Shown piece by piece: positions 2,741 to 25,308 of a DNA stretch of 63,219 nt. Source of the DNA: Chloroflexota bacterium (GTDB lineage Bacteria; Chloroflexota; Limnocylindria; Limnocylindrales; CSP1-4); NCBI GenBank assembly GCA_017881915.1, contig JADGQK010000005.1:1-63219 (forward strand), in the 5' to 3' direction. Made by a program: the position numbers and the translations under genes. The notes below the pieces were generated by a model, which was not told the DNA's origin, ran no database searches, and saw only the letters and a program-made list of their open reading frames with translations. How positions within the stretch are numbered: position 1 is the first letter of the stretch; each line of letters opens with the position of its first letter.

Positions 2741-3211
2741 TCAGGGTGCCGCCAGGGCTTGCGCGACCGCCAGGTACTCGCCGGCGGTCACATGCCGGCG
2801 GGAGGTCTCGAGCAGGTAGCGTTCGATGCTCCCTGTCGGGTCCGCCATGACCGCCCGCGCTCCGTCGCCCGGAGCCGCCACCTCGCCCCGATAGGCGACC
2901 AGCGTGCGACCCGGGAGCAGGATCGTGAACCCGTGATAGCCCAGGCCGCCAACCGGGGGCGTGCGCGTGCTCTGCGGCAGGGCCAGCAGGGCCGCATCCA
3001 GGGCGGCGGCCTCCTCCCCCGTCAATGCCCACTGTGGATCGGGCCGGCCGGAGTACAGGCCCATGACCACGGTCACCGCTTCCGCCGGACCGACGCTTCC
3101 CGACGCAGCTGTGCTCGGCGCGGGCGCCCTCGGGCTTGGCGTGACGGAGCTTGCGCAGGCCGCGACCAGGAACAGGCCGATGATGAATGCCAGGTCTCGA
3201 GGGGTCCTCAC
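2741..3211 (-). CDS. Hypothetical secreted lipoprotein
   Basis: The start is a GTG at 3211 with a GGAGGG SD 4 nt upstream. The signal peptide and lipobox read VRTPRDLAFIIGLFLVAAC, followed by a Pro/Ser/Ala linker and then a domain of about 100 aa with no family I recognise. It is the last gene of the long minus-strand operon. Confidence 0.55.
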   Translation of the reverse strand: MRTPRDLAFIIGLFLVAACASSVTPSPRAPAPSTAASGSVGPAEAVTVVMGLYSGRPDPQWALTGEEAAALDAALLALPQSTRTPPVGGLGYHGFTILLPGRTLVAYRGEVAAPGDGARAVMADPTGSIERYLLETSRRHVTAGEYLAVAQALAAP

Positions 3212-3233
3212 GGGCCCTCCATTCGCGGGGGCA

Positions 3234-4097: not shown

Positions 4098-4205
4098 TGG
4101 TCGATCCTCCTGCTGCCGTGAAGACCGCGACCCGATATCGGCCGGGCCGGCGTCATGCGTGGGCATGCCTGGCCAGCCAGGCGCCGATCGCGTCGGCCGC
4201 GCAGC

Positions 4206-5315: not shown

Positions 5316-5423
5316 GGACGACTCCTCGGTGATGGAGGCCTGGCACGGATCTTCGCAAGCGGCGCCAGGACGGCCGCCCACCGATGGCCGCGCGGTTAGG
5401 CGGCCATCGGTGGTCGACGCCAG

Positions 5424-6866
5424 CTACGCTTCGCCGATTGCCTCGCCGGCTTTCAGGAGCCAGTCTTCCTCGCCTCGCGCCCGCAGGTAGAACAGGATCG
5501 CGATGCCAATGATCAGCCAGACCCCGTCGATCAACGGGGCGTAAACGTACGGTGCCGCGGGCAACGTCGGGAAGAACGACGCATACACGGCATAGATCAG
5601 CACGGCCGAACCGATGAACGGGAAGATCACGTGCAGGAAGATGTTGAACTCGTCCTTGTGCTCACCCCGGTAGAACATGAACACGGCCAGGTTGGCCATC
5701 AGGTAGACCACGGTCACGCCCAGGACCAGGATCAGGCCGTCCACGAAGAAGAACGACACATCCGGGCCGAACCAGAACGCCGGCAGGAGCCCGATCCCGA
5801 GGGACAGGACCATCTGCATCAGGATCGCGTTGGTCGGGGTCTTGTGCTCCGTATGGGTCACGGCCAGGGCCTTGGGGAAGGACCCGCTGCGGGCCATGCT
5901 GTACCACATCCGGGTGCTCACGTTGGCCGTCGAAAGACCGTTGCCGATGACGCTGTTCAGGAACGCGATGAGGATCAGGATCCAGCCCGCGCCCCACACC
6001 CGGTGGGCCAGGTCCAGGGCCGGCAGCTCCTTGTCGTTGATGATGTCGTTGACGTTGTTGATCCCGAAGCCGGTGATCACGCCCCAGAAGACGATCACCA
6101 GGTAGATCCCGATGATCACGATCGAGAGGTAGACCGACAAGGGGACATTTCGCTTCGGGTTCGTCGTTTCCTCGCCGAGAGGCGCGGCGGCCTCCCAACC
6201 CGTGAGCCCCTGCACGGAGAACACGACGGCCAGGGCAAATGACGACAAGCCGAGCCACTTGCCCGGATCAAAGACCGAGACTGACACTCCGCCGGGCCCG
6301 GGCTCAATGAATCCGGTGATGGCCAATGCGAGCACGATCAACATCTCGAGCCCGCCGGTGATCACCAGGGCCCTGGCCGAGAGCTTCAGGCCGCGGTGCT
6401 GCATGTAGGCGATCATCGGCGCGAAGACCACCACGCTCAATGCCCACAGCCAGGGCATGTCGATGCTGTAGTTCGACTTCAGCTCGTTCTGAACGATGAA
6501 GCCGAAGAATGCATAGACTGGTCCCGATGCGATCGGCGAATAGAGGATGAACATCCACGACGTGAGGAAGCCCGCCCGAGGGTGGATGGCCCGACTGACG
6601 TAGGTGTAGTACCCGCCGGCCGACGGCAGGTGCTTGGACAGCTGGACCAGGGTGCTGCCAAGCAGCAGCACGATGATGAACCCGGCGACATAGGCAAGAG
6701 GCGCCGTGATTCCCGCGAGGGAGATCACGAACTGGGTGAAGAACAGCGCGGCGATTGCAGGCGAGATGTGGGTGATCGCCTGCATCGTGGCGCCGACGAG
6801 CCCGATCTGATCCTTTTCAAGATCGTTGGTTATCGGGCTCGCCGGGCTGGGCGACGATTGACTCAT
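5424..6866 (-). CDS. APC superfamily amino acid/amine permease
   Basis: The product is about 480 aa with roughly 12 hydrophobic segments and an APC-like N-terminus (…GLVGATMQAITHISPAIA…). The ATG at 6866 has an AAGGAG SD 8 nt upstream. Confidence 0.85.
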   Translation of the reverse strand: MSQSSPSPASPITNDLEKDQIGLVGATMQAITHISPAIAALFFTQFVISLAGITAPLAYVAGFIIVLLLGSTLVQLSKHLPSAGGYYTYVSRAIHPRAGFLTSWMFILYSPIASGPVYAFFGFIVQNELKSNYSIDMPWLWALSVVVFAPMIAYMQHRGLKLSARALVITGGLEMLIVLALAITGFIEPGPGGVSVSVFDPGKWLGLSSFALAVVFSVQGLTGWEAAAPLGEETTNPKRNVPLSVYLSIVIIGIYLVIVFWGVITGFGINNVNDIINDKELPALDLAHRVWGAGWILILIAFLNSVIGNGLSTANVSTRMWYSMARSGSFPKALAVTHTEHKTPTNAILMQMVLSLGIGLLPAFWFGPDVSFFFVDGLILVLGVTVVYLMANLAVFMFYRGEHKDEFNIFLHVIFPFIGSAVLIYAVYASFFPTLPAAPYVYAPLIDGVWLIIGIAILFYLRARGEEDWLLKAGEAIGEA

Positions 6867-7003
6867 AGTCTCCACTCCTTCACGAACTCACGCTACCTGG
6901 GTCATTGCGTGCTGCTGATCTCGCTGGGCAATCCGCCCAATTCGCACCAATCACCAACTGGTTATGGCTTCCTCCTTCGCACCCAATTGCCCAGACGACG
7001 CGG

Positions 7004-7981
7004 TCAGAAGATCGCGAGTGGATTCCAGGGCGAGCCCGTCGCCCGGGGCAGTCGGAGCGGTGCTCCGACGACAAGAAAGTCGAACCGGCCGAGCTCCTGG
7101 CTCACCTTGGCCAGGTCCTCGAACTGGAGGCTGTCAGAGCAGGCCATGCCCATCCCGACGATCTGGAGAGCGTGGATCGGGTAGAGGATGCCGTCGACGG
7201 AGCTCGGGACGGCCTCGCCGTCACCGTCGGGCAGGAAGGCCGCGATCCGGCGTTCGTGCATCCACGGAATCGTGTCGACGTGCAGGCCGGCCTTGCCTTC
7301 ACCGGCGTAGCCGTTGTCCCACGCTCCCAGCTCGAGCCGGCGGCGGTGGTGACCCGTCCGATAGACCAGGATGTCACCCTCCCCGAGCTGGACACCCTCG
7401 GCCCGCTCGACCTCCTCGAGCTCGGCCCGGGTCACGGCTTCGCCCGGCTCGAGCCACTTGACACCGCGGAAGCGCGGCACGTCCAGGAGCACGCCCCGCC
7501 CGATGATGCCGTTGGCATAGTTCGCAATGTCGAGGCTGGTGGCCCCATGCGAGGTCACGACGCTCTCGGCCGGCCGTCCGTTGTACACCGTGCCGTTGTA
7601 GGCGAGGTGGCACAGTGCGTCGACGTGGGTGTGGCAGTCGCCGTGGAAGTTCATCCCGAGGAAGTCGGTGGCGAACCGGAGGCTCCCCGAGCCGAGGTCC
7701 CAATCGTGCATCTGGCTCATGTAGTGAATGGCCGGATTCGGGTTGTCCGGGCCGGCCGTCGTGTTGATCGGGATGGACAGCGAGACGCTGCGGCCCGCGC
7801 GAACGAGCGCCGCGGCGGCCCGGACGTGGTCTGGCGTGATGTAGTTGAGGGTCCCCAGCTGGTCGTCCGGTCCCCAGCGCCCCCAGTTCTTGACCGACTC
7901 GAGGAGTGCCTCGAACTCGGCCAGCGAGATATTCGGGGCGCGCCGGGCGACGCTGGCCACGGGCAGCTGGCTGGCGGTCAT
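7004..7981 (-). CDS. Putative cyclase family protein (kynurenine formamidase-like metal hydrolase fold)
   Basis: Motifs seen: NWGRWGPDDQLGTLNYITPD and the metal motif HGDCHTHVDALCH. The start overlaps the stop of the upstream SDR gene by 4 bp (ATGA). Confidence 0.8.
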   Translation of the reverse strand: MTASQLPVASVARRAPNISLAEFEALLESVKNWGRWGPDDQLGTLNYITPDHVRAAAALVRAGRSVSLSIPINTTAGPDNPNPAIHYMSQMHDWDLGSGSLRFATDFLGMNFHGDCHTHVDALCHLAYNGTVYNGRPAESVVTSHGATSLDIANYANGIIGRGVLLDVPRFRGVKWLEPGEAVTRAELEEVERAEGVQLGEGDILVYRTGHHRRRLELGAWDNGYAGEGKAGLHVDTIPWMHERRIAAFLPDGDGEAVPSSVDGILYPIHALQIVGMGMACSDSLQFEDLAKVSQELGRFDFLVVGAPLRLPRATGSPWNPLAIF

Positions 7982-8784
7982 CGGACGCCACCGGGAACCA
8001 GCGGCACATCGAGCTGGCCGGGCACCGGCAGCCCCACGGAGTACGCGCCGTCAACGACCATCAGGGCGCCGCTCATGTACGACGCGTCCTCGGAACACAT
8101 GTACAGGATCGGCTTCGCCATTTCGATCGGCTCCGCGAAGCGGCCCAGCGGCGTGCGATCGAGGAAGACCTTCGACTGGACCGGGTCCTGGATGACGAAC
8201 CAGGACAAGCGCGTGTTGATGATCCCCGGGGCGATCCCGTTCACCCTGATGCCCAGCTTGCCCAGCTCCATGGCCGCCGTGTGCATGATCGCCACCTGGC
8301 CGGACTTCGACGTGTTGTAGAAGACGCCTTCCTGCTCCGGCTGGTAGGCGTTCGTCGAGGAGACGACAACGATCGCGCCGCCGTGGCCTTCCTTGACCAT
8401 CTGGCGAGCCGACTCCTGGACCGACAGCCAGGTTCCCTTGAGGTCGATCCCGATCTGCTGCTCCCAGGATTCGTCGCTGCCCTCCAGGAATGGCACGAAG
8501 TCGGCGATGCCGGCATTCGCGACCATGTAATCGTGGCTCCCGAACCGCTCGGAGCAGGCCGCGACGGCCCGTTGCACGTCGGCCCGCTTCGAGACGTCGC
8601 CGACGACGACCTCGCACTTGCCACCCGCTGCCCGGATCGCCTGCGCGACCTCCTCGAGCACATCGGCATGCCACCCGAACAGTACGACGCCAGCGCCCTC
8701 CTCGGCGAAGCATTCAGCGGTCGCTCGGCCGATCCCGCGTCCGGCACCGGTCACGACCGCCCCCTTGCCCTCAAACCTCTTCAT
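7978..8784 (-). CDS. SDR family oxidoreductase
   Basis: MKRFEGKGAVVTGAGRGIGRA carries the TGxxxGIG motif. The NAG motif and an S…YxxxK catalytic pattern (YNTSK) are also present. Confidence 0.9.
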   Translation of the reverse strand: MKRFEGKGAVVTGAGRGIGRATAECFAEEGAGVVLFGWHADVLEEVAQAIRAAGGKCEVVVGDVSKRADVQRAVAACSERFGSHDYMVANAGIADFVPFLEGSDESWEQQIGIDLKGTWLSVQESARQMVKEGHGGAIVVVSSTNAYQPEQEGVFYNTSKSGQVAIMHTAAMELGKLGIRVNGIAPGIINTRLSWFVIQDPVQSKVFLDRTPLGRFAEPIEMAKPILYMCSEDASYMSGALMVVDGAYSVGLPVPGQLDVPLVPGGVR

Positions 8785-8850
8785 CGCCTCTCCTTGTGAT
8801 GGCTCGGACGCCGCGTGTTGGAGCACGCCGATCGTTCTCGTGTGAGGCCC

Positions 8851-10014
8851 TTAGCCGGCCGCGAGGCCGTGGTGGCCGGGTCCGCGCGGGATCACCGGCC
8901 AGATGTCGACGACGACGTTGTCGTGGACCACGTGGTATGCGTCGTACCAGTTCACCGTGGCTGGTGAGTAACCCGGGATGAGGGCGACGCTATCCCCCAC
9001 CCGGAGCCTGGTCTCGCCGGTCACATCGAAGAGGCCGTGTTCCTCGTCGAAGCGGAACACCGGCAGATCGTGGCCCTGGATCTCGCACAATGCAGGTGCG
9101 CCCATCGACTTGTTGCCGGCATCGACCGTGAGGCGCTGGCCGACGCGGCTGATGACCCGCGCCTGGACCGTGAGCGCGAATTCGAAATCGGGCGCCATGT
9201 GGCCGTGGAACTTGTCGATCACGACATAGGTGCCGGCCTGGATCTCGGTCACGCCGGGGAACTGCGCGGTCAGCTCCCATGTGCCTGTCCCTCCGGCGGA
9301 AACGATCGGGCACGCCAGTCCGTTCGACCGGAGCAGGTCGGCGATGCCGACGAAGAAGGACATGGCCGTCTTTTCACGCTGAGCGCGCAGATCCGCCTCG
9401 GGAGTCGTCGAGCAGTGTCCCTCGTAGCCGGTCACGCCCTCGAGGCGCAGGCCTGGCAGGCCGGCCACCTGCTCGGCGAGAGCGAGCGCCTCCTCCGGCG
9501 TGTCGACGCCGCAACGGTCCATGCCCGTGTCGATCTCGATCATCGCGCCGAGGACGGACCCGGCGCGCACAGCGGCTGTCGAGACAGCTTCCGCGTTGGC
9601 CCGATCGTCGACCGCAACCAGCACGCGTCGCTCACGCGCCAGCTCGGCCACGATCCGAATCTTCTCGGGGCCGGCGATCTCATTGACGATGAACAGGTCG
9701 TCGATGCCGGCCGCGGCCATGACCAGCGCCTCCCAGACGGTGGCCGTCGAGAGCCCGATCGCCCCGGCTTCGACCTGGCGCAGCGCGAGCTCGGGGCTCT
9801 TGTGGACCTTGATGTGGGGCCGGATCCGGGCGGGCATGGACCGCAGGCGTTCGGCCCTCCGGTCGATATTCCGCTGGGCCACATCGATGTCGAGGACGAG
9901 GGCCGGGGTAACGAGCTCCTCACGCGGTCTTCCGATCGCCGACCCGTACTCATCACGGACGCGTTCGCGCGTTTCCTTGAGCAGCGCGACGGCCTGGGCA
10001 ACCGGCTGGGTCAT
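8851..10014 (-). CDS. Fold-type III PLP enzyme, D-serine dehydratase / D-threonine aldolase-like (alanine racemase N-terminal domain), paralogue A
   Basis: TPALVLDIDVAQRNI…IRPHIKVHKSPELA contains the PLP lysine context, followed by …GYEGHC… and a C-terminal DSD1-type domain. The start is the MTQPVA Met, which overlaps the stop of the rpe-like gene (ATGA). The upstream ORF extension is Arg-rich junk. Confidence 0.8.
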   Translation of the reverse strand: MTQPVAQAVALLKETRERVRDEYGSAIGRPREELVTPALVLDIDVAQRNIDRRAERLRSMPARIRPHIKVHKSPELALRQVEAGAIGLSTATVWEALVMAAAGIDDLFIVNEIAGPEKIRIVAELARERRVLVAVDDRANAEAVSTAAVRAGSVLGAMIEIDTGMDRCGVDTPEEALALAEQVAGLPGLRLEGVTGYEGHCSTTPEADLRAQREKTAMSFFVGIADLLRSNGLACPIVSAGGTGTWELTAQFPGVTEIQAGTYVVIDKFHGHMAPDFEFALTVQARVISRVGQRLTVDAGNKSMGAPALCEIQGHDLPVFRFDEEHGLFDVTGETRLRVGDSVALIPGYSPATVNWYDAYHVVHDNVVVDIWPVIPRGPGHHGLAAG

Positions 10015-10763
10015 TTCTCCCTCGCTCCTGGGCTGCCGGCAAGCTGCCGCCGCCCGCGTATCTCCCCGAGCATCAGTGCGGCGTTTTCCTCGGGGGTCCT
10101 GCCGTCGAATATCGCGGACCCGGTCACGATCACGTCGACGCCGAGCGTCGCGACGTGGCCGAGGTTCGCCCTCGTGATGCCCCCATCCGCACCCAGGAGG
10201 ATCGGCCGGCCGGACCGGGCGATCAGCTCGGCGACTGCGGCGAGCTTGTCCTCCATCGCCGTGATGAAGCCTTGCCCGGACCACCCGGGGTTGACGGCCA
10301 GGACGAGCACGTACTCGAGGTCGTCGAGCAGCGGCTCGAGTGCGCCCGCGGGCGTACCCGGGTTCAGGGCAACACCCCGAACGATCCCGCGTTCGGGATC
10401 GTTGGCATTCGTTGCCTTGCCGAGCACCTGGAGCACGCGGTGGGGATGGCGCGTGCCCTCGACCTGGAAGGTGATCATGTCCGCTCCGGCGTCCACGAAC
10501 GCCTGGACCTTCTCGACTGGGTCCTCGATCATGAGGTGGGCGTCTTTCAGCAGAGTCGTCCGCTGCGCCTTCACGAACGGGGGGCCGACGGTGAACATCG
10601 GCGAGAAGACCCCATCACCAACGTCCGTGTGGACGATCCGCGCCCCGACCCGCTCGAGCAGTGCCAACTCGTCGCCGAGATGGAGTAGATCGGCGGTCAG
10701 GATTCCGACGCTGAGATGAGGCCCAGTCGCCCGGAGGTCCGCGACGAGCTCGGCTACGCTCAT
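10011..10763 (-). CDS. rpe: Ribulose-phosphate 3-epimerase family protein (Rpe / LsrE-like)
   Basis: [16 protein letters not shown]…[12 protein letters not shown]…[10 protein letters not shown]…[12 protein letters not shown]…DGGI matches the Rpe family pattern. Both ends overlap neighbouring genes by 4 bp. Confidence 0.85.
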
Positions 10764-11668
10764 CGCGCAGACACCAGCGGCTGCGGATCGTGCTCGCGAC
10801 GCAACGTCTCGTAAAGCTCGAGTGCCTCCCTCGGCGGCATGTTCTCGTGGACGACCTTGCGCACCGCCCGGAGCATTGCGATCGGTGAGTCACTCTGGAA
10901 GATATTGCGACCCATGTCCACGCCGGCCGCGCCGCCCTGGATGGCGTTGTATGCCATTTCGAGCGCAGCCAGCTCCGGCAGCTTCGTGCCGCCGGCCATG
11001 ACGATCGGGACTGGGCACGCCGCCGTCACCTTGTCGAAGTCGGGATCGCAGTAATACGTCTTGACGACCTGGGCGCCAAGCTCGGCGATGATCCGGCACG
11101 CGAGGCCCAGATAGCGCGCGTCTCGGGCCAGTTCGCGCCCGACCGCGGTGACACCCAGGACCGGCACCCCGTGACGGAGCCCCGCGTCGACCAGGCGGGT
11201 CATGTTGTGGACGGTCTTCGTCTCGAACGGACCGCCGATGAATACCTGGACGCCCACGCCAACCGCGTTCAAGCGAAGCGCGTCCTCCATGTCCAGGGCG
11301 ATCTCCTCGTCGGAGAGCTCCTTGAGGATCGATGGGCCGCCGCTGGCGCGGAGCCAGATGGGCGCCTGGGTCATGGCGGGCACGACCGACCGGACGATCC
11401 CGCGCGTCACGAACAAGGCATCGACGTACGGGACGAGCGGCAGGACGTCGACATCGATCCGCTCCAGGCCCGTCGTGGGCCCCTGGAAGTAGCCGTGATC
11501 AATGGCCAGCATCACCGCCCGGCCGCTGTCGGGCCGGAACACCCGGGCGAGCCGGTTCTGCATGCCCCAGTCGTACGCCCCGGAGCCCTTCAGGAAGAAC
11601 GGCGTGTTCTTCTGGAGGATGTCCTGGTGGTATTGCTTGGCTTCCAACGGGCTGTCGGCGTCAGGCAC
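10760..11668 (-). CDS. lsrF: LsrF-like class I aldolase-fold enzyme (3-hydroxy-5-phosphonooxypentane-2,4-dione thiolase family)
   Basis: The sequence lines up almost residue by residue with E. coli LsrF as I remember it: [46 protein letters not shown], …RASGG.SIL…, [51 protein letters not shown]. Confidence 0.85.
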
Positions 11669-11700
11669 GCTTTCTCCTCATTTCGGGCGCGTCGCTTGCG

Positions 11701-11731
11701 CTCAGCATTGGCCACGCCCATGGCGTGCTGA
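11701..11731. other. Intercistronic stem-loop between lsrK-like and lsrF-like genes
   Basis: The sequence is CTCAG-cattgg-CACGCC-cat-GGCGTG-CTGAG. It forms a 6-bp inner stem and a 5-bp outer stem within the 75-nt gap. Its function is unknown. Confidence 0.25.
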
Positions 11732-11743
11732 GATGCATCGATG

Positions 11744-13309
11744 TCATGTGCCCGCCGCCCGCCAGAGCGGGGGCAACAGGCCGGCTTCTGCGATCTCGAG
11801 CTGACGGCCGTACACCGCAGCCCACCGTTCGTAGAGGTCGTCGTACTGGATGTGGGCAGCCATCTCCGGGTCGACGGTTCGCTCGAACCGGACGATCCGG
11901 CGGGCGGCCTCGTCGAGGTCCGGGTACAGGCCGGCACCGACTCCCGCGCACATCGCTGCGCCCAGCGAGGTGGACTCGCGCACGACCGGAATGCGCACCG
12001 GCACGCCCAGCACGTCGGCCACGATCTGCGGCCAGAGACTGCCCTTGGAGGCACCGCCGGTGAACACGGCCTCCTCGAAGATATGACCGGTCAGATCCTC
12101 GATGATCCGAAGGTGGCCCCGCGCCACGTACGCGGCGCTCTCCTCAATGGCCCGGATGCACTCCCGCCGACCCGAGCGCTCCGGATGGCCCACGTCAAAG
12201 CCGAGGAACGACGGTGACGCGTGGACCCAGTGCTTCGCGTTCATCAGGTTCGAGAAGATCGGCACGATCCCGTTCGAGCCGACCGGGACTGCCGCAGCCG
12301 CCTCCTCCATCAGGCCGTACGCGTCCCGTCCTTCGCGTGCCGCCCGCTCGACCTCGGCGTCGCAGAAGGCATCCCGGAACCAGCGCATCGTCAATCCTGG
12401 GTAGAAGCCAATCCCTTCGATCATCCACTGGCCAGGGCGCACATGGCAGAGCGTCCGCAGGCGCATCTCCGGGTCGATCAGTGGCCGGTCGAGGACGACG
12501 GTCGCCTGCCAGAAGCTGCCACCCACGATCGAGAAACGATCGGGCTGGGCCACGCCGATCCCGAGCAGCGCGAGCTGCGTGTCCGCGCCGCCGGCCACGA
12601 CGAGCGTGCCCGCGCGGAGACCCGTCTGCTCGGCTGCGGCCTCGGTCACGGCGCCGACGACCGTGCCCGGTTCAACGACCGGCGGGAACACTCGCGGGTC
12701 CAGGCCCAGGAGCGCGATGGAATCCGGCGACCATGTCCGTTCCGCCAGGTCGAACAGGTCCGAGCTCGACCCGCAAGTCGCGTCGGTGACGTATGCGCCG
12801 GACAGTCGCGTGAGCACCCAGTCGCTGAGCATCCCCACGTGGGCGATCCGCTCCCAGATGTCGGGCTGGTGGCGCTGGATCCAGAGGAATCGGGCCGGCG
12901 AAGTGATGGCGACCCAGTCGCCGCCCCGCCGATAGATCCGCTCGGCCTCCCCGCTCGCGACGAGCTCGCCGACCTCCACCGACGCGCGTGAGTCCACATT
13001 GGGACAGGCCCAGATCTCGGCCCCCGCCGCGTCGTACAGGACCATTCCTTCTCGCATGGCCGTGCTGCTCACGGCCGCGATGCGCCCTGGTGCGATCCCG
13101 GAGCGAGCCAGGGCCTCGCTCACGCACGAGATCACGAGCGGCCAGTTTCGCTCGGTCTCGAAGACCTGCGAGCCGGGGGCATCCGGCAGCTCGGGATGCG
13201 ACCACTCGCGCTGTCCGATCCCGACCTGGGTCCCGGCCCCATCGAAGATGACTGCGCGGCACATCCCGGTCCCGAGATCGATCGCGAGGGTGCAGTCGGC
13301 CTCAGGCAC
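11744..13309 (-). CDS. lsrK: FGGY-family kinase, LsrK (autoinducer-2 / DPD kinase)-like
   Basis: Several blocks shared with E. coli LsrK are recognisable: AIDLGTG..RAVIFD, REW.H…PD.PGS..F, MREG.VLYD..G..IWAC.NVD.RA, GLTMRWFRDAFC, GGASKG.LW.QI.ADV.G.PV.IPVV.E.T.LG, and a C-terminal PLWRAAG. Confidence 0.85.
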   Translation of the reverse strand: MPEADCTLAIDLGTGMCRAVIFDGAGTQVGIGQREWSHPELPDAPGSQVFETERNWPLVISCVSEALARSGIAPGRIAAVSSTAMREGMVLYDAAGAEIWACPNVDSRASVEVGELVASGEAERIYRRGGDWVAITSPARFLWIQRHQPDIWERIAHVGMLSDWVLTRLSGAYVTDATCGSSSDLFDLAERTWSPDSIALLGLDPRVFPPVVEPGTVVGAVTEAAAEQTGLRAGTLVVAGGADTQLALLGIGVAQPDRFSIVGGSFWQATVVLDRPLIDPEMRLRTLCHVRPGQWMIEGIGFYPGLTMRWFRDAFCDAEVERAAREGRDAYGLMEEAAAAVPVGSNGIVPIFSNLMNAKHWVHASPSFLGFDVGHPERSGRRECIRAIEESAAYVARGHLRIIEDLTGHIFEEAVFTGGASKGSLWPQIVADVLGVPVRIPVVRESTSLGAAMCAGVGAGLYPDLDEAARRIVRFERTVDPEMAAHIQYDDLYERWAAVYGRQLEIAEAGLLPPLWRAAGT

Positions 13310-14399
13310 GCGCGGTCACCTCGGCGGTCGTCCGACGCTGCTCCAGCGCCGTCCGATTCGCGACGTTCAACAGCGGATCTCCCACTGCGAAGCGGGTGAT
13401 CTCGGCCGCGGCCATCTCGCCCCCCCGCAGCAGCGTCTCGTGGGTCGAGCCGCCGATGTGGGCGACGATCGCGACATTGGGCATCTCGAGCAGGCGATGG
13501 CGCCGCCCGAGCTCAAGTGGCTCGTCCGGCCCGGGCGCTCGGACGACGTCGAGACCGGCACCGCCCAGGTGGCCGGACCGGAGCATGTCGTAGAGCGCGT
13601 CCTCGTCGACGAGCGTGTCGCGGGCGGTGTTGATGAAGATCGCGCCCGGCTTCATCCGCGCGAATGCGTCGCGCCCGATCAAACCACGGTTCTGCGCCGT
13701 TGAGCGCGCGTGGAGCGACACGAAATCCGACCGGGCGAGCAAGTCCTCCAGGCTCGCCGACTCCAGGCCGGCCGCCTCAATCACCCCCGGCTCCACGAAC
13801 GGGTCATAGACGATGACGCGCATGCCCCAGGCGAGCGCGAGCCGTGCGACGCGGTGGCCGATATGGCCGTATCCGACGAGCCCGAGCGTCCTGCCGGCGA
13901 GCTCGAACCCGAACCACATCGCGCCCTCGTAGTTGTCTCGCCCGAGTGCCCCACCGCCCTCGATGTAGCGGGTCACGGCGGGGATCTTCCGGGCGAGGGT
14001 GATCATCAGCGCGAACACGAGCTCGGTCACGGCCTGGGCGTTCTTCCCGGGCGCGGTCACGACCGGGAGACCGCGGGCCGTCGCCGCTGAAACGTCGATA
14101 TTGGCCGGTCCGCCGCGAGCCACGCACAGGAGGCCCAGGCTGGGGCAGCTGTCCAGGACCACATCGGTTACGGGAGCGCCCTGGACGACCAGTACGTCAT
14201 GTCCGTCGAGCAGCCGGATCAGCTGCGCCGGGCTGCCCAGGTACTCCTTGATCTGCAGCTCCGAGGCACTCGTGGGCTGCCAGCTTGGCTCGTCGATCAG
14301 ATCGACGAAGGTGATCTCGTGTCTCCGGCCCAGTTCGTCGAAGGCCGGGCGCAGGGCTGACGATGGACAGTACGAATCACCGGCCACCAGGATCTTCAT
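13302..14399 (-). CDS. D-isomer-specific 2-hydroxyacid dehydrogenase family (PGDH-like), with an N-terminal extension
   Basis: GRTLGLVGYGHIGHRVA is the NAD-binding GxGxxG motif. …FVSLHA… and the catalytic-type pattern RG…E…H (IVAHIGGST) are present. The stop overlaps the lsrK-like start by 8 bp. Confidence 0.85.
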   Translation of the reverse strand: MKILVAGDSYCPSSALRPAFDELGRRHEITFVDLIDEPSWQPTSASELQIKEYLGSPAQLIRLLDGHDVLVVQGAPVTDVVLDSCPSLGLLCVARGGPANIDVSAATARGLPVVTAPGKNAQAVTELVFALMITLARKIPAVTRYIEGGGALGRDNYEGAMWFGFELAGRTLGLVGYGHIGHRVARLALAWGMRVIVYDPFVEPGVIEAAGLESASLEDLLARSDFVSLHARSTAQNRGLIGRDAFARMKPGAIFINTARDTLVDEDALYDMLRSGHLGGAGLDVVRAPGPDEPLELGRRHRLLEMPNVAIVAHIGGSTHETLLRGGEMAAAEITRFAVGDPLLNVANRTALEQRRTTAEVTARA

Positions 14400-14456
14400 G
14401 CCACCCCTTTCGCCGAACGCCTGGTTGTCAGCACTGCCCCGGCGGGCGACACGCCG

Positions 14457-14978
14457 TCAGGCCTTGGTCTCGGCAGGCTGCGGTGGGTACTGGCGGACGG
14501 GCTCCAGGTCGATCGCGTGGCCCGATCCGCTTTCGGCCACGAAATGGACGGCGGGCATGGTGTCCACGTAGTAGAACTCGATCGTCTCGCCGATCCGCCC
14601 GCCCATCGTCACTTCGAAGCCGGCTTCCTGAAAGCGCTCCTTGAAGGCGTCCGACTCCTGCTGGGTGTGGTGCATCATCGCGATGTGCTGCACACCCTCG
14701 CCATACGTCGCGAGATGGTCCTTGTAGATGGAGTCGCCCTCGAGCGGCTGAATCAGCTCGAACACCAGGCCCGGCTGCACCTCGCATTCCGCGCCGATCA
14801 TCGAGTAGTTGGCGGGCTTCCCGTGCAGGTGCTGGTCGTGCAGCTTCGGCGGTACGTGCTCATAGACGTTCCACGGACCCCACCCGAAGAGCTCGTGGTA
14901 GGTCTTCATGGCCGCGTCGAGGTCTCGCACGACCACGGCGATCTGCGAGATGCGGTAGGGCTTCTCCGGGGGTTGCAT
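14457..14978 (-). CDS. VOC (glyoxalase / methylmalonyl-CoA epimerase-like) family protein
   Basis: ISQIAVVVRDLDAAMKTYHELFGWGPW…GVQHIAMM… shows paired beta-alpha-beta-beta-beta module signatures. It is the first gene of the minus-strand operon. Confidence 0.75.
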   Translation of the reverse strand: MQPPEKPYRISQIAVVVRDLDAAMKTYHELFGWGPWNVYEHVPPKLHDQHLHGKPANYSMIGAECEVQPGLVFELIQPLEGDSIYKDHLATYGEGVQHIAMMHHTQQESDAFKERFQEAGFEVTMGGRIGETIEFYYVDTMPAVHFVAESGSGHAIDLEPVRQYPPQPAETKA

Positions 14979-15281
14979 CGCGCTCTCCTTCCCCGCTCAA
15001 GCGGGCTCCTCGCGCCAATCGACCACCACTCCCACGCACTGCGAGGGAGATGGCATGCGGACCCGGCCGCCGACCCAATTCTTGCAGCCATGTCAAGACC
15101 TTGCAGGACCACCATGTCAGGGGCCTCTATGTCGAGGCAGGTGATGGGCTCGATGATGCAGGACATACACGATCCTGCCGAACCCCACTCCGGTGCGGTC
15201 GCCCTGACGGCCCAGTCGTGATAGCCTCGCATCGCAACACAGTTCGGCCAGGGCCAGCTGGCCGGCGAGCGAGGTGCAGGA

Positions 15282-16271
15282 GTGGACCCAAAGGGGCTGC
15301 CGGACAGACGCCCATCGCATCCGGGCGCGGCAGGGTCTGTGATCGACCAGGTCGTCGAGGTCGCATCGCAGTTCTACGTGCTGCGCCGTACCCAGGTCGA
15401 CATCGCCCACTCCATGGGGCTCGACCCGTCGACGGTCTCGCGCTACCTCAGGCGCGCCCGGGACGAAGGGATCGTGCGGATTGAGATCAGGCCGCCAATG
15501 GATGAGCAGGCGGGGCTCGGGCTTGCGTTGGCCGATCGCTACGGGCTTGCCCGCGCCATCGTTGTCCTGGGCGAGGACCTCTCCGTGGAGGACGTCGCAT
15601 CCGTTGCGGCGGACCACATTGGGGGCTTGCTCCAATCGGGCATGCGTCTCGGCGTTTCGTGGGGCCAGACGCTGTCGGCCGTCGTCCACAGCCTGCCGCC
15701 CGGGATCGTGTCGGACCTCGACATCGCACAGACCGCGGGCGGGCTTGGGAACACGACACCCGGTGTGCAGGGAAGCGAGCTGGTGCGCTACCTCGCCGAG
15801 CTGTACCCGCCCAGCCACGTCCACTACCTGCACGCCCCCGCGATCGTCGACTCGGTCGACATCCAGCAGGCAATCCTTAGCGATAGCTCGGTGCAGGCCG
15901 CCCTCGCCGCCGCCGTGCCCAGCGAGCTCGCGCTGATCGGAATCGGCACGCTCGGGGACGACGCGACGCTCGTCCGAGGTGGCCACCTCTCCGCCGAGGA
16001 CCGGATGCTTCTCCTCGAGCACGGCGCGGTCGGCACCATGAACACGCGATTCTTCGACGACGAGGGGCGTCCAGTCGCCGACCTCGAGGAGCGCACGATC
16101 GCGATCAACTGGGAGGAACTCCGGCGCGTGCCGACGGTCGTGGCGGTCGCGGTGGGAACAGCCAAGTGCCGTGCGATCAGGGGCGCGCTCAAGACTGGCT
16201 GTATTGACATCCTGGTCACGGATGCCCCTACGGCTCGCCTCCTTCTTGAGACTGCGCCAGCGGCTGCCTGA
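15282..16271 (+). CDS. SorC/DeoR-type sugar-phosphate-binding transcriptional regulator (LsrR-like)
   Basis: The HTH is VASQFYVLRRTQVDIAHSMGLDPSTVSRYLRRARDEGIVRIEI, followed by a SorC sugar-binding domain (…GVSWGQTL…IGIG…VGT…VAVAVG..K..AI.GAL..G.I..LVTD). It has a GTG start and is divergent from the lsrK/lsrF operon. Confidence 0.8.
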   Translation: MDPKGLPDRRPSHPGAAGSVIDQVVEVASQFYVLRRTQVDIAHSMGLDPSTVSRYLRRARDEGIVRIEIRPPMDEQAGLGLALADRYGLARAIVVLGEDLSVEDVASVAADHIGGLLQSGMRLGVSWGQTLSAVVHSLPPGIVSDLDIAQTAGGLGNTTPGVQGSELVRYLAELYPPSHVHYLHAPAIVDSVDIQQAILSDSSVQAALAAAVPSELALIGIGTLGDDATLVRGGHLSAEDRMLLLEHGAVGTMNTRFFDDEGRPVADLEERTIAINWEELRRVPTVVAVAVGTAKCRAIRGALKTGCIDILVTDAPTARLLLETAPAAA

Positions 16272-16281
16272 AGAGGCATCA

Positions 16282-16443
16282 AGGGGCAACCCGCCCGAAG
16301 CCATCGAGTCGAGCCTTGAGCGCGCCGAGGAACCGCGCCGCCTCGGCGCCGTCAACGGCGCGATGGTCCGCCGAGAGCGTGGCCGTCATCACCGAACGGA
16401 TGGCGACGGCGTCGTCGACGACAACAGGCCGCCGGACTGCGCG
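16282..16443 (-). pseudogene. Relic C-terminus of a 2-oxoacid dehydrogenase E2 (lipoamide acyltransferase) catalytic domain
   Basis: The reverse frame between stop codons at 16444-16446 and 16279-16281 reads RAVRRPVVVDDAVAIRSVMTATLSADHRAVDGAEAARFLGALKARLDGFGRVAP*. This is the canonical E2 C-terminal block, including the DHRxxDG active-site motif. There is no upstream catalytic domain. It overlaps the TIM-like gene 3' end in another frame. Confidence 0.6.
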
Positions 16444-17207
16444 TCAGCCTCCAGGTCGAGCGGTCGAACGCGGGCGTGGGCGATCCGGGCGAATTCCACA
16501 GGATCGAGGGCTGCTCGCCCGACGAAGAGCCCGTCCACCCCCGGTTGGGCGAGCAGCTCCCGGCACGTGTCGAAGTCGACGCTTCCGCCGTAGATGACCC
16601 GCGGTGCCGCGCAGCCGAGCCGAACGAGATAATCCCGGACCGCCAGGTGGATCGCCGAGACGTGCTCGCCCGAGGCGACGCTTGCACCCGCACCAATGGC
16701 CCAGTACGGCTCGTAGGCCACCACGACCCGGGCCAGCTCGTCCGGCCGGATGGCTCCGAGAATCGCGCCCAGATGGCGGAGGACGACGGCGCGGGCCGTC
16801 GAGGTCGGCATCGCAACGCGTTCGCCGACGCACACGATCACCTCGAGTCCGCAGTGAACCCCCGTGGCGACCTTCCGGGCGATCTGCCGATCTCCTTCGC
16901 CATGATCGCGGTGCCGCTCGGAGTGGCCGACCTCTACGAACCGGCAACCCAGATCAACCAGCATCGGGGCGGAGATGTCGCCCGTATGCGCACCCGAGAT
17001 ACTCTCGTGGACGTCCTGCGCCCCCCACGCAATTGCCGTGCCGGCCAGCTCCTCGCGCGCGACCCACAGGGCAGTGAACGGTGGCAGGACGAACAGATCC
17101 CGATCGTCGATATCGGCGACGAGTGGGACCAACGCCTGGAAGTACGCCCGAGCCTCGGTAGCCGTGAAGTTCATCTTCAGACTCGTCCCGACCAGCTCCC
17201 GGGTCAT
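16389..17207 (-). CDS. tpiA: Triose-phosphate isomerase family protein (paralogue-like; possibly a tetrulose/triose phosphate isomerase)
   Basis: GTSLKMNF carries the catalytic Lys (with Ser where TIM has Asn), VEVGHSERH the catalytic His, and VVAYEPYWAIGAG the catalytic Glu loop. The last roughly 14 residues (…GGLLSSTTPSPSVR) are read out of frame from the E2 relic. The start overlaps the RLP stop by 4 bp. Confidence 0.85.
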   Translation of the reverse strand: MTRELVGTSLKMNFTATEARAYFQALVPLVADIDDRDLFVLPPFTALWVAREELAGTAIAWGAQDVHESISGAHTGDISAPMLVDLGCRFVEVGHSERHRDHGEGDRQIARKVATGVHCGLEVIVCVGERVAMPTSTARAVVLRHLGAILGAIRPDELARVVVAYEPYWAIGAGASVASGEHVSAIHLAVRDYLVRLGCAAPRVIYGGSVDFDTCRELLAQPGVDGLFVGRAALDPVEFARIAHARVRPLDLEADAQSGGLLSSTTPSPSVR

Positions 17208-18397
17208 TGCGGATCGCTCGGCGACAGCGCCTCGTCGATCGCCACCCTGATCGCGCGGGCCCCGGCCTGGGCGCCTCCGGGATGCCCCTGGATCGCGCCG
17301 CCGACACCCAGGATGACGTCGATTCCCGACTGCTGGACCAGCGGCCCGATCATCGCGGCGGTCACGCCGCCGGCGAGCATGGGCATGGCCGGCTTGAGCT
17401 TCCCTCTCGGCTCAGCCAGCCACCTGAGCGTCTGTTCATAGACGCGACGCGGAGTCGAGCGAGCGTACGGCGTGGTCGTGAACACGGCATCCGCTCCGGC
17501 CAGGCGGAGCAGCTTCCCGAACAGGACGGCCTGCCCGATCCCCGTGCTGACGGCTCCGGTAAACACCTCCGCGGCGGCGGTGTGGACCAGGATCGGCACG
17601 CCAAGCTCGCTTTCGACGAGCGCCTGGAACGGATCCAGCCCGACCACGAGCGCATTGACCATGACCGCGTCCGCGCCGCCATCGACGGCCGCCCGGGCGG
17701 TATCGACGAGACGGATCGACCGGTCGGTGACGTTGGCGATGTACCTGGCCCGCTGGCCGGTCTCCTCCGCCACGCGGTCCAGCCGCTCGCGGTACACCCG
17801 CGAGCGCTCGGCAACCCGGTTGAACGGCGCATCCCCGAGCAGCTCGTCATCCTTGATCAGGTCGGCCCCGCCGCGCGCGGTCTGCTCGAGCAGGTTGGCT
17901 CCGACCTTCGGCGAGTACCCCGTACATGGCTTGATCATGTTCAGGAGCAGGGGCCGGTGCCAGACGCCGGTCGTCTGTCGCCAGCCGGCCACGCCCCACT
18001 GCGGCCCGGGAAAGGCTGCCTCGTAGGACGCCGGCAGGTCGATGTCGACGAGTCGGGCGGTCAGCGACGTCGAAGGGTCATTGCCGACGAGCGTGGTCAG
18101 CATCATCGGGAACTGCGGCCCGAAGTTCTCGGTTGGGAAGGCGACCCGCAGGAGCCAGCGAGAGCCGATCGATTCCCCGCCGACCTCGCCCGCCGGCGGA
18201 CCATGGCCAACCTCGACCACCCGGGCTCCGTGCTGGCGGCGCATCCTCGGGCTGATCCCGGGCACGGGCACCCACGTGCCGATGCTCTGACCCGTGGCGA
18301 ACGCGTCGGCCGCCTCCGTCACGTGGTCGGCAGGTAGCTCGGCCAGGTACGTCGCCACGAGTTCCTGCCGCTCACGCCGTGCGGTCATGCTCTCCAC
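17204..18397 (-). CDS. RuBisCO large-subunit-like protein (form IV, RLP)
   Basis: GGADLIKDDELL matches the RuBisCO GxDFxKDDE carbamate/metal motif. NMIKPCTG corresponds to IKPKLG with the second Lys replaced by Cys. ILVHTAAA corresponds to the HIHRA block, with Thr at the position that appears to correspond to the Arg. MLAGG…ILGVGGAIQGHPGG corresponds to the C-terminal phosphate-binding loops. There is no small-subunit gene and no PRK gene nearby. Confidence 0.85.
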   Translation of the reverse strand: MESMTARRERQELVATYLAELPADHVTEAADAFATGQSIGTWVPVPGISPRMRRQHGARVVEVGHGPPAGEVGGESIGSRWLLRVAFPTENFGPQFPMMLTTLVGNDPSTSLTARLVDIDLPASYEAAFPGPQWGVAGWRQTTGVWHRPLLLNMIKPCTGYSPKVGANLLEQTARGGADLIKDDELLGDAPFNRVAERSRVYRERLDRVAEETGQRARYIANVTDRSIRLVDTARAAVDGGADAVMVNALVVGLDPFQALVESELGVPILVHTAAAEVFTGAVSTGIGQAVLFGKLLRLAGADAVFTTTPYARSTPRRVYEQTLRWLAEPRGKLKPAMPMLAGGVTAAMIGPLVQQSGIDVILGVGGAIQGHPGGAQAGARAIRVAIDEALSPSDPQ

Positions 18398-18439
18398 TTC
18401 CGTGATGTCGCACCTGGGACGCCCGAGCGCGGATTTGTC

Positions 18440-19198
18440 CTAGTGCATCCCGCGCCCACCGGCGACGATCAACAGCTCGCCGGTGATGAAGTCGGCATCG
18501 GTCGAGGCCAGGAACGCGGCCGAAGCGGCAACGTCCGCAGGTGTGCCCCAGCGCCCCAGCGCCGTCTCGGCGAGGATCCGTTCGTGCACCTCCGGGTCAA
18601 TGTCTTCCATCATGTCGGTCCTGATCCAGCCCGGGCAGATGGCATTGACCCTGATGTGCGGCCCGAGGGCGAGCGCCATCGCCTTGGTCAGGCCGTTCAT
18701 GCCGGCCTTCGAGGTGACGTACTCGGTGAAGCGCATCGCCGAAGGGTGGTACAGGCCCGAGTTCGACGAGATGTTGATGATCGTGCCGGACTGCTGCGCC
18801 AGCATGATCGGGGCGACCTCCTTCGAGCACAGGTAGGCGCCCTTCAGGTTGATGTCGATCGTCCGGTCCCAGTCATCCTCGGTTGTCTCCAGGACGCCCT
18901 TGGTGACCATCACCCCCGCGTTGTTGACGAGGATGTCGATCCGCCCGAAGCGTTCCATGGTGGCCCGAACGAGGCGCTGGACATCGCCGCTCCTTGACAC
19001 GTCGGCCTGGACCGTGAGGGCGCCAACCCCCGCGGCCTCGATCGCCCGGGCGGCCGCGGCGGCCTCCGGCTCCTTCGAGACGTAGTTAATGGTGACGGCG
19101 GCGCCCTCGTCAGCGAAACGCTGGGCGATGGCCAGGCCGATCCCGCGGGATGAGCCGGTCACGATTGCGACCTTGCCCGCCAGTCGTTGCTCGCTCAT
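18440..19198 (-). CDS. SDR family oxidoreductase (FabG-like)
   Basis: The signatures AGKVAIVTGSSRGIGLAIA, NNAG and S…YVTSK are present. Confidence 0.9.
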   Translation of the reverse strand: MSEQRLAGKVAIVTGSSRGIGLAIAQRFADEGAAVTINYVSKEPEAAAAARAIEAAGVGALTVQADVSRSGDVQRLVRATMERFGRIDILVNNAGVMVTKGVLETTEDDWDRTIDINLKGAYLCSKEVAPIMLAQQSGTIINISSNSGLYHPSAMRFTEYVTSKAGMNGLTKAMALALGPHIRVNAICPGWIRTDMMEDIDPEVHERILAETALGRWGTPADVAASAAFLASTDADFITGELLIVAGGRGMH

Positions 19199-19216
19199 GG
19201 TGCTTCCTCCTAGGGT

Positions 19217-20212: not shown

Positions 20213-20285
20213 GTTCCTTCCGGCTCGGGTGAGCCGACGGGCCGGCTGCCTCGTCCGTCGGCGCTGGTCTGGACGGAGGTCGGCG

Positions 20286-21248: not shown

Positions 21249-21281
21249 TGTTCGATGGTCTCCCTTGCGCTCGCGAATTGA

Positions 21282-25303: not shown

Positions 25304-25308
25304 CGCCG

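Follow-up and report, generated by a model that had tools for sequence, protein, structure and literature searches.

Does a kinase and aldolase pair of the lsr type, found in a Chloroflexota bacterium of soil, mark a locus that processes autoinducer-2 (AI-2), a signal of quorum sensing, or does it serve another purpose? The pair in question lies on contig JADGQK010000005.1 (assembly GCA_017881915.1), of which we analyzed positions 1–63,219, the whole stretch referred to here as the window. In the established pathway, LsrK converts 4,5-dihydroxy-2,3-pentanedione (DPD) to phospho-DPD, LsrG isomerizes this product, and the thiolase LsrF yields dihydroxyacetone phosphate (DHAP) together with acetyl-CoA (review, PMC8016206). 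An earlier note, made from the letters alone, had described the locus as an lsr-like core for processing AI-2 and DPD that lacks LsrG and LsrACDB. We found that the LsrK/LsrF pair is the core of a ~12-kb, 11-gene catabolic operon on the minus strand (3234–14978), which we read as a nutritional pathway and not as a quorum-sensing circuit. That this operon catabolizes a DPD-type 1-deoxy keto-pentose to DHAP and acetyl-CoA, and does so without LsrG, is a proposition to which we give an even chance. The genes of the operon, in the order of transcription, and the elements that face it are as follows.

14457–14978, minus strand: methylmalonyl-CoA-epimerase-like protein of the VOC fold, encoded at the head of the operon (Pfam Glyoxalase_4)
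13302–14399, minus strand: D-2-hydroxyacid dehydrogenase, phosphoglycerate-dehydrogenase-like (Pfam 2-Hacid_dh and 2-Hacid_dh_C)
11744–13309, minus strand: LsrK-family FGGY kinase (FGGY_N, PF00370, and FGGY_C, PF02782; NF008187)
10760–11668, minus strand: LsrF-family class I aldolase-fold enzyme, predicted CoA-dependent thiolase (DeoC/LacD fold, PF01791; NF006081)
10011–10763, minus strand: ribulose-phosphate 3-epimerase (Rpe) homologue (PF00834)
8851–10014, minus strand: D-threonine-aldolase-like fold-type III pyridoxal phosphate (PLP) enzyme (Pfam Ala_racemase_N and D-ser_dehydrat)
7978–8784, minus strand: short-chain dehydrogenase (SDR), sugar 1-dehydrogenase-like (family profile matches)
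7004–7981, minus strand: cyclase-family metal hydrolase (PF04199)
5424–6866, minus strand: APC-superfamily permease, presumed importer (Pfam AA_permease; start checked)
4206–5315, minus strand: DUF4432 protein, aldose-1-epimerase-like (mutarotase-like) (Pfam; PDB 3TY1, a hypothetical aldose 1-epimerase)
3234–4097, minus strand: xylose-isomerase-like TIM-barrel protein, ketose 3-epimerase-like, last recognizable gene of the operon (Pfam AP_endonuc_2)
15282–16271, plus strand: SorC-family regulator, divergent from the operon (Pfam Sugar-bind and a helix-turn-helix domain)
15075–15104: conserved upstream element, GCAAGGTCTTGACATGGCTGCAAGAATTGG on the operon strand, 126 nt ahead of the VOC start

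The LsrK/LsrF pair and its operon

Judged by sequence, the kinase and the aldolase-fold protein are genuine members of the LsrK and LsrF families, with a similarity far beyond chance. The kinase scored 626.7 bits against the NCBIfam autoinducer-2 kinase model NF008187 (cut-off 528), whereas the next family, XylB, reached 203. Its residues 8–520 align with residues 25–539 of Escherichia coli LsrK (PDB 5YA0; E 1e-149), and this end-to-end alignment contains the blocks GLTMRWFRDAFC and PV.IPVV.E.T.LG from which the earlier note had recognized an LsrK-like kinase, an assignment that stands. The kinase is 45% identical to Enterobacter LsrK, 51% to Bacillus LsrK and 42% to Lacticaseibacillus paracasei LsrK; Enterobacter LsrK is about equally near to the window kinase (45%) and to L. 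paracasei LsrK (44%). Trees of the kinase and of LsrF were built by neighbor-joining without bootstrap. In the kinase tree, an LsrK super-clade stands well apart from the remaining FGGY kinases (those of Sagittula and Shinella reach 27% identity), and within it the kinases associated with VOC genes, including that of the window, form a sister group to the clade of Enterobacter, Bacillus and L. paracasei LsrK. We dropped DPD-binding residues as a test of LsrK substrate because the DPD sites of the LsrK structural paper are modeled only, none being experimentally defined (PMC8028047).

The LsrF-like protein scored 463.9 bits against NF006081 (cut-off 297) and aligns without gaps over residues 1–287 with E. 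coli LsrF (PDB 3GKF; E 2.5e-109, 57% identity), in an alignment that holds the LsrF blocks quoted in the earlier note. In the LsrF structure, Lys203 is the Schiff-base residue and Asp57 the general base, Asp251 is an LsrF-specific replacement of the Glu or Tyr found in other aldolases, and the phosphate site consists of His58, Gly226, Gly227, Gly253 and Arg254 (PMC2728841). According to the same paper, Ser or Ala stands in the place of Asp251 in related aldolases. D57, H58, K203, G226, G227, D251, M252, G253 and R254 all match their E. coli LsrF counterparts in this gap-free alignment; the catalytic Lys and Asp residues that the note had singled out for checking are thus retained (K203, D57 and D251), together with those of the phosphate site. 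These nine functional residues are invariant across all 82 LsrF-like sequences compared, which favors a conserved chemistry across the LsrF family. In the LsrF tree, the Chloroflexota proteins make up one clade, the sister of a very large one with members from Acidobacteriota, Planctomycetota, Verrucomicrobiota, Actinomycetota, Desulfobacterota and Alphaproteobacteria. Enteric LsrF falls in with its counterparts from Sagittula and Shinella, and the LsrF of L. paracasei diverges most, so that LsrFs from real lsr operons bracket the window protein.

The gene that follows lsrF does encode an Rpe homologue, which the earlier note had compared with Salmonella lsrE. The protein falls below every NCBIfam Rpe and epimerase cut-off and is equidistant from LsrE (130 bits, 38% identity to the Salmonella protein) and housekeeping Rpe (141 bits to a solved Rpe), and we therefore did not retain it as a specific LsrE orthologue. 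Rpe homologues of at least 45% identity come after LsrF-like genes in 42 of 82 loci.

Several features mark the locus as a single operon. G+C content is ~69% throughout the window, and frame-specific G+C at third codon positions delineates a co-directional run of minus-strand genes that begins at 14978 and ends at 3234. At four junctions, the stop codon of one gene overlaps the start of the next: dehydrogenase/kinase, where the 3′ end of one gene and the start of the other overlap by 8 nt; LsrF/Rpe and Rpe/PLP enzyme, where the start overlaps the preceding stop by 4 nt in each case; and SDR/hydrolase. The genes named in the earlier note are all in place, with the VOC and 2-hydroxyacid dehydrogenase genes opening the operon and the APC permease gene further down the same strand. 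Among the downstream products, the PLP enzyme has D-threonine aldolase 4V15 as its best PDB match (E 3.8e-58), and the xylose-isomerase-like protein scored 168 bits against the NCBIfam D-psicose 3-epimerase model, below its cut-off. The element at 15075–15104 carries the 30-nt motif GCAAGGTCTTGAC-N5-6-CTGGCACAATCTT; of 14 related regions compared, 9 have this motif ahead of the gene that opens the operon, and the element is a likely operator or promoter. A promoter and terminator scan of positions 2800–22600 returned no promoter-like and three terminator-like sites, fewer than in shuffled sequences, and was uninformative in this high-G+C genome.

The same arrangement recurs in other genomes. 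We scanned one genome per species with the LsrF-like protein and obtained 80 loci with flanks. An LsrK-like kinase (62–69% identity) is also encoded in 16 of these, which have flanks of up to 10 kb on each side, 15 from Chloroflexota metagenome-assembled genomes (MAGs; Chloroflexota, Chloroflexia, Limnocylindria and Limnocylindrales) and one from Dormibacterota. Among named relatives, MAGs of Chloroflexota come nearest, those of Candidatus Limnocylindria and Limnocylindrales among them, and a metagenome contig encodes an identical LsrF protein with the same downstream gene order. The dehydrogenase–kinase–LsrF string is present in all 13 loci with upstream sequence, the dehydrogenase gene lying directly upstream of the kinase gene; Rpe follows LsrF in 13 of the 16 loci and a VOC gene is found in 12 of them (11 of the 13 with assessable upstream sequence). 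Genes for the PLP enzyme, SDR, hydrolase, APC permease and DUF4432 protein recur in most of the 16. Where found, the SDR copies are 84–92% identical, those of the cyclase-family hydrolase 69–76% (8 loci) and those of the DUF4432 protein 60–67% (8 loci). Elsewhere, in L098, an APC permease gene stands at the head of a VOC–dehydrogenase–kinase string. Gene order is thus kept over at least 16 loci despite protein identities of 57–73%, which points to an operon and not to chance juxtaposition. What the earlier note had taken for an unusual architecture in a high-G+C lineage therefore recurs in at least 16 Chloroflexota and Dormibacterota MAG loci, and the invariant partner of the kinase is the phosphoglycerate-dehydrogenase-like enzyme, which that note had overlooked.

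The wider LsrF family is organized differently. A trio of LsrF, often an Rpe-like protein of the same subfamily, and a 700-residue bifunctional aldolase/SDR (NF006194, 900 bits), with neither kinase nor transporter, is present in 46 of 82 loci (L008, L011, L016, L020, L022, L034, L038, L054, L062, L064, L070, L072–L075 and L080 among them). It occurs in Acidobacteriota, Planctomycetota, Verrucomicrobiota, Actinomycetota, Alphaproteobacteria and others, many copies adjoining ruvABC, and its LsrFs keep all catalytic residues. In Desulfobacterota, LsrF is followed by a Zn-dependent alcohol dehydrogenase. On two Bacteroidota plasmids, DhaK/DhaL genes lie directly upstream of LsrF (L086, 7291–9873, Parabacteroides; L087, 7224–9894, Aureibacter), and DhaK/DhaL also accompany VOC–kinase clusters in two MAG loci (L093 and L095). 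Outside the enterics, the usual partner of LsrF is a dehydrogenase or else a small protein of isomerase type but different fold.

lsr components absent from the window and candidates for the LsrG step

A hidden Markov model (HMM) of LsrG (query, the E. coli sequence, a 100% match to PDB 3QMQ) was run with all filters off on every six-frame open reading frame of at least 45 residues. It detected the positive controls from Enterobacter (E 1e-58) and Salmonella (E 4e-56) and found no LsrG in the 63-kb window or in 82 LsrF-centered loci. The sole sugar ABC transporter of the window (23768–27814) is a generic CUT2 system with the following genes, all identified by family profiles.

23768–25525, minus strand: CUT2 ATPase
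25309–26295, minus strand: CUT2 permease
26384–27814, minus strand: CUT2 binding protein

Its scores fall short of the cut-offs for LsrA (393 bits, cut-off 586), LsrC (101, cut-off 388) and LsrD (89, cut-off 500), and its binding protein gave no match to LsrB. The absence of LsrG and LsrACDB was therefore borne out within the window. As to the divergent regulator, membership of the SorC family and divergence from the operon were confirmed, but the LsrR type was not: the protein scored 117 bits against the LsrR model (cut-off 486) and 200 bits against that of Bacillus subtilis DeoR, also below the cut-off, and is 30% identical to Enterobacter LsrR. On these scores we regard it as a generic SorC protein and not as an LsrR orthologue. 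The locus appears to resemble the cytoplasmic half of the lsr pathway and lacks, within the window, three defining parts of an lsr system, namely LsrB/LsrACD, LsrG and an LsrR orthologue; nothing in the window points to an lsr system for quorum sensing.

The first gene of the operon encodes a credible substitute for LsrG. The VOC protein belongs to a small family (492 clusters). It fits the VOC plan of paired beta-alpha-beta-beta-beta modules (AlphaFold model, pLDDT 88), and Foldseek returned as the top match 3GM5, a putative methylmalonyl-CoA epimerase (E 4.7e-12), followed by authentic methylmalonyl-CoA epimerases (~2e-8). The protein is not an equivalog of these enzymes (27.8 bits, cut-off 115). 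Residues Q12, E74, H98 and E149 are invariant in 29 homologues and form a candidate four-residue metal site; human glyoxalase I likewise has Gln/Glu/His/Glu as its ligands, and methylmalonyl-CoA epimerases act through a metal-stabilized enolate. We looked up the contexts of nine homologues (57–68% identical) on long contigs from Alphaproteobacteria, a Spirochaetia MAG and metagenomes, including the cultured Notoacmeibacter ruber, Roseovarius sp. and Microvirga sp. In all nine, the VOC gene adjoins that of an FGGY kinase with LsrK as its best model (478–592 bits), and these kinases, where measured, are 47–55% identical to the window kinase as against 39–41% to enteric LsrK. The epimerase-like fold with its enolate chemistry and the consistent adjacency to LsrK-type kinases make the earlier suggestion that the VOC protein may replace LsrG a reasonable one.

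A second candidate is the dehydrogenase encoded between the VOC protein and the kinase. Its best NCBIfam and PDB matches are D-3-phosphoglycerate dehydrogenases, enzymes that oxidize a CHOH group beside CH2OP. Every sampled cluster with LsrF or a long class II aldolase homologue, the two enzymes predicted to form DHAP, has a 2-hydroxyacid dehydrogenase along with the kinase, whereas the E1/E2 variant described below has none. In this small sample, the distribution fits the creation of a 4-keto group beside the phosphate ester. By analogy with its relatives, we infer that the dehydrogenase may oxidize a 1-deoxy-pentulose 5-phosphate to 3-hydroxy-2,4-pentanedione 5-phosphate, in place of the isomerization of phospho-DPD.

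The earlier note had also named a nearby RuBisCO-like protein (RLP) as a possible LsrG replacement. It is encoded in a neighboring operon (16389–22424, minus strand), in which an E1 pair occurs without E2 and the RLP stop overlaps the start of the last gene.

21282–22424 as an open reading frame, probable start 22172, minus strand: YhfZ-like GntR regulator (family profile)
20286–21248, minus strand: thiamine pyrophosphate-dependent E1 alpha, acetoin/pyruvate dehydrogenase type (family profile)
19217–20212, minus strand: thiamine pyrophosphate-dependent E1 beta, acetoin/pyruvate dehydrogenase type (family profile)
18440–19198, minus strand: SDR (family profile)
17204–18397, minus strand: RLP, nearest to the MtnW enolase type (RuBisCO large-subunit domains)
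16389–17207, minus strand: triose-phosphate isomerase homologue, last gene of this operon (Pfam TIM)

The RLP falls below the MtnW cut-offs (263 against 409 and 235 against 514 bits), and its best PDB match is the Geobacillus enolase 2OEK (E 1e-64). No RLP of at least 45% identity was found in the related loci, and only three of these (L005, L028 and L030) have a divergent RLP (36–39% identity) inside the cluster. As it is not conserved with the operon, we rejected the RLP as an LsrG substitute and kept it as a weakly linked accessory.

A different small protein occupies the place of LsrG in Firmicutes. The lsr-like loci of an L. paracasei plasmid and a Bacillus sp. contain cupin genes (L088, 1207–1563, and L089, ~8680–9093, respectively) and no LsrG, and a natural LsrK–cupin fusion (P0252; 653 residues, Cupin_2 domain) has its kinase in the Firmicutes LsrK clade. 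Together, these suggest a second non-orthologous LsrG replacement. Most other long kinase "fusions" were enteric artifacts with autotransporter or HipA neighbors, leaving the cupin fusion as the only one in the LsrK clade. Two distant FGGY kinases (33–35% identical to the window kinase) are fused to a class II aldolase domain (P0330) and to a 2-hydroxyacid dehydrogenase domain (P0368), fusions that echo the kinase–dehydrogenase–aldolase neighborhoods.

Proposed pathway and competing readings

The substrate, the order of the steps and the choice between the VOC protein and the dehydrogenase as the source of the beta-diketone are what we infer in the following scheme. The substrate would be a five-carbon 1-deoxy keto-sugar, either DPD itself or a 1-deoxy-pentulose, which could be imported directly or made from an imported amino compound by the six downstream genes. 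The LsrK-family kinase would phosphorylate its primary hydroxyl. The VOC protein, by enediolate isomerization, and/or the dehydrogenase, by oxidizing the CHOH beside CH2OP, would then give 3-hydroxy-2,4-pentanedione 5-phosphate, while the Rpe-like protein probably adjusts C3. The LsrF-like enzyme would form a Schiff base through Lys203 and pass the acetyl group to CoA, releasing acetyl-CoA and DHAP, and triose-phosphate isomerase would equilibrate DHAP with glyceraldehyde 3-phosphate for entry into glycolysis. Control of the operon would fall to the SorC regulator and the upstream element. The earlier note's own alternative, a route for a different 1-deoxy-diketo-pentose phosphate, is arguably a better reading than its AI-2 proposal. 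Hydroxy-D-amino acids, amino-aldonates, Amadori products and opines were considered as the imported compound and none fitted all genes.

The enzymes that end the pathway vary on what appears to be one entry module. LsrF with Rpe is found in the Chloroflexota-type loci and in L097. Six VOC–kinase clusters have a long class II aldolase homologue in this position, corresponding to the N-terminal half of the NCBI "bifunctional aldolase/short-chain dehydrogenase" family. In the Spirochaetia MAG, a VOC–VOC–kinase string is followed by a complete acetoin-dehydrogenase-type E1 alpha/E1 beta/E2 set; compared with the E1 pair in the neighboring operon of the window, its E1 alpha shows 42% identity and its E1 beta 55%. 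The use of two unrelated types of acetyl-forming enzyme on the same module suggests that the phosphorylated intermediate has a CH3-CO- end, as DPD and the 1-deoxy-pentuloses do. E1 homologues lie near LsrF or VOC–kinase genes in L037, L050, L059, L074, L076, L077 and L093, so the neighboring operon may belong to the same metabolism, its E1 pair possibly offering another way to cleave this class of substrate with formation of an acetyl unit. Triose-phosphate isomerase homologues adjoin the operon in 7 related loci and, in L013 and L065, lie inside it, with the dehydrogenase gene next downstream; from this arrangement, the homologue of the window is probably linked to the operon in function.

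Several considerations weigh against a DPD-type substrate handled in this way. The two candidates for the LsrG step compete: if the VOC protein performs it, the invariant dehydrogenase is left without an obvious role, and if the dehydrogenase makes the beta-diketone, the VOC protein would be reduced to epimerization; moreover, the VOC gene is absent from 2 of the 13 assessable loci (L015 and L024). The kinase belongs to a sister subclade and not inside canonical LsrK, so its substrate could differ. LsrF genes often occur without an LsrK-type kinase (46 of 82 loci; DhaK/DhaL in Bacteroidota), and the family may therefore accept other substrates. A D-threonine-aldolase-like enzyme together with an APC permease suggests that the imported compound is amino-acid-like. 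Finally, 63 kb of the source genome are visible, and lsrG, lsrB or luxS could lie elsewhere in it.

It is possible, if on the whole doubtful, that the same scaffold works on another substrate, a polyol, a pentulose or an amino-sugar derivative in place of a 1-deoxy diketone. The kinase and dehydrogenase would then create a -CO-CH2OP end, and LsrF would be a plain DHAP-forming aldolase or would release another acyl group such as glycolyl. GlpK/GlpD and EryA/EryB create such a ketose-1-phosphate-type end, and the LsrFs of Sagittula and Shinella occur with a non-LsrK FGGY kinase (27%) and a GlpD-like dehydrogenase. The accessory genes of the window, for the D-threonine-aldolase-like enzyme, the sugar 1-dehydrogenase-like SDR and the mutarotase-like and epimerase-like proteins, resemble the opening steps of a route for amino sugars or hydroxy amino acids, the Bacteroidota LsrFs are paired with DhaK/DhaL, and a triose-phosphate isomerase and RpiB pair adjoins one related cluster, as in tetritol pathways. 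The Rhizobiales arrangement, flagged for further work as a "putative Lsr system in Rhizobiales", is of this type as well (Quan and Bentley, 2012; PMC3420918). A literature search on polyols and LsrF found nothing relevant. The kinase, however, is clearly of the LsrK type (627 bits as against 203 for XylB), Asp251 and the remaining LsrF-specific residues are kept, and the acetoin-dehydrogenase-type E1/E2 alternative argues for a methyl-ketone end. An ordinary pentulose 5-phosphate, in addition, would join the pentose phosphate pathway without LsrF.

Interception of AI-2 with true signaling seems improbable to us. Here, AI-2 from neighboring cells would be phosphorylated, phospho-AI-2 would be the effector of the SorC regulator and the VOC protein would be a non-orthologous LsrG. 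Membership of the LsrK and LsrF families would fit, as would the conserved operator-like element, the VOC–kinase association and a divergent regulator from the family to which LsrR belongs. Yet that regulator is not an LsrR orthologue, the window has neither an LsrB-type receptor nor an LsrACD importer, and the operon contains six extra catabolic and transport genes unrelated to lsr, with stop/start overlap at two junctions. A literature search found no description of this locus and no link of lsr genes or lsrK to Chloroflexota.

We consider it very improbable that the locus is an incomplete piece of a canonical lsr system with lsrG and lsrACDB placed elsewhere in the genome. The limited portion of the genome inspected leaves room for such a split, but no LsrG was found in the 16 related or the 82 LsrF-centered loci by a search that recovered its controls at E values of around 1e-56 or better, and the operon has conserved partners of its own in the LsrG position. 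A chance juxtaposition of over-annotated sugar genes, in a window with many sugar kinases, SorC regulators, aldolases and transporters, can hardly be reconciled with a gene order conserved in at least 16 loci, four stop/start overlaps and a shared upstream motif.

If the operon does break down a DPD-type 1-deoxy keto-pentose, a broader and more tentative interpretation can be drawn. LsrG may have given way to non-orthologous proteins on two or more occasions: to a methylmalonyl-CoA-epimerase-like VOC protein in Chloroflexota, Dormibacterota, Alphaproteobacteria and Spirochaetia, and in Firmicutes to a cupin. An LsrK-type kinase with its small partner may be the entry module of a widespread network that burns DPD or 1-deoxy keto-pentoses to acetyl-CoA and triose phosphate. 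Such a network would have three interchangeable solutions for C-C cleavage: thiolysis by LsrF, an E1/E2 of the acetoin dehydrogenase type, and a long class II aldolase homologue fed by phosphoglycerate-dehydrogenase-like oxidation. In soils and sediments, AI-2 would then commonly serve as a source of carbon to bacteria well outside the enteric and Bacillus lineages, and the large LsrF family of Acidobacteriota, Planctomycetota, Verrucomicrobiota and others would perform the same thiolysis in undescribed pathways.

Whether AI-2 is a signal or a plain metabolite in most bacteria is an old argument, and in the sources that we consulted E. coli and Salmonella are the only bacteria with a documented LsrK, LsrG and LsrF route for it. 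As the window shows, both enzymes that give this route its distinctive chemistry also occur in soil phyla that are abundant and uncultured, where they have other partners and another importer. Should the VOC protein or the dehydrogenase stand in for LsrG, these would be new enzymes of phospho-DPD turnover and new metagenome markers for AI-2 consumers, and environmental annotations of "lsrF" or "autoinducer-2 kinase" should not be taken to mean quorum sensing. If the substrate is a different one, the operon would be a new catabolic route that reuses LsrF-type thiolysis.

Other genes of the window and comparison with known systems

Beyond the two operons, the window holds further sugar-related genes. 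Divergent from the CUT2 transporter are genes for a second, XylB-like FGGY kinase (domain at ~28.8–30.2 kb) and a second D-threonine-aldolase-like PLP enzyme (30242–31339), so that the pairing of a kinase with a PLP aldolase is present twice in the window. A third sugar cluster follows.

34405–35496, plus strand: second SorC-family regulator of the window
35454–36356, plus strand: class II ketose-bisphosphate aldolase
36254–37126, plus strand: HAD phosphatase
37552–38736, plus strand: DhaK

Further along the plus strand, a c-di-GMP-II riboswitch (RF03169; 40384–40468) scored 58 bits against a gathering threshold of 40. It lies ~230 nt upstream of a malic enzyme gene (40699–42471), directly after which comes the gene of an MttB-family, trimethylamine methyltransferase-like protein (42472–44010, plus strand).

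With the enteric lsr system (lsrRK-lsrACDBFG(E) of E. coli and Salmonella), the operon shares an LsrK-family kinase, an LsrF with identical catalytic and phosphate-site residues, a divergent SorC-family regulator and an Rpe-family gene, which comes after lsrF in the window and, as lsrE, after lsrG in Salmonella. It differs in having no LsrG, LsrB, LsrACD or LsrR orthologue in the window, in the position of its kinase in a sister subclade, and in the VOC protein and phosphoglycerate-dehydrogenase-like enzyme encoded ahead of the kinase, with six more genes downstream. The lsr-like loci of Firmicutes (L. paracasei plasmid pMGB0747-1 and Bacillus sp. N5-665) likewise combine LsrK and LsrF with a small protein of another fold in place of LsrG. 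Unlike the window, they keep an LsrB-like ABC importer, use a cupin and not a VOC protein, and have no dehydrogenase.

The Rhizobiales system and the Sagittula and Shinella plasmids also join LsrF to an FGGY kinase, a dehydrogenase that acts next to the phosphate and a SorC/DeoR regulator, without LsrG. Their kinase, however, is not an LsrK (27%), the dehydrogenase is GlpD-like, a class II aldolase is encoded beside LsrF and uptake is by an ABC importer. The trio of LsrF, Rpe and NF006194 has an LsrF from the sister clade (65–73% identical) followed by the same Rpe subfamily, but lacks the kinase, VOC protein and transporter of the window operon and often sits among housekeeping neighbors such as ruvABC.

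The clusters of Alphaproteobacteria (N. ruber, Roseovarius sp. and Microvirga sp.) and Spirochaetia differ from the window in that a class II aldolase homologue or E1/E2 replaces LsrF and Rpe and a CUT2 ABC system serves for uptake. They have in common with it a VOC protein (57–68% identical) and a kinase of the same subclade (47–55%), and those of Alphaproteobacteria also share the 2-hydroxyacid dehydrogenase and the SorC regulator, with APC permease, SDR and D-threonine-aldolase-like genes in some relatives.

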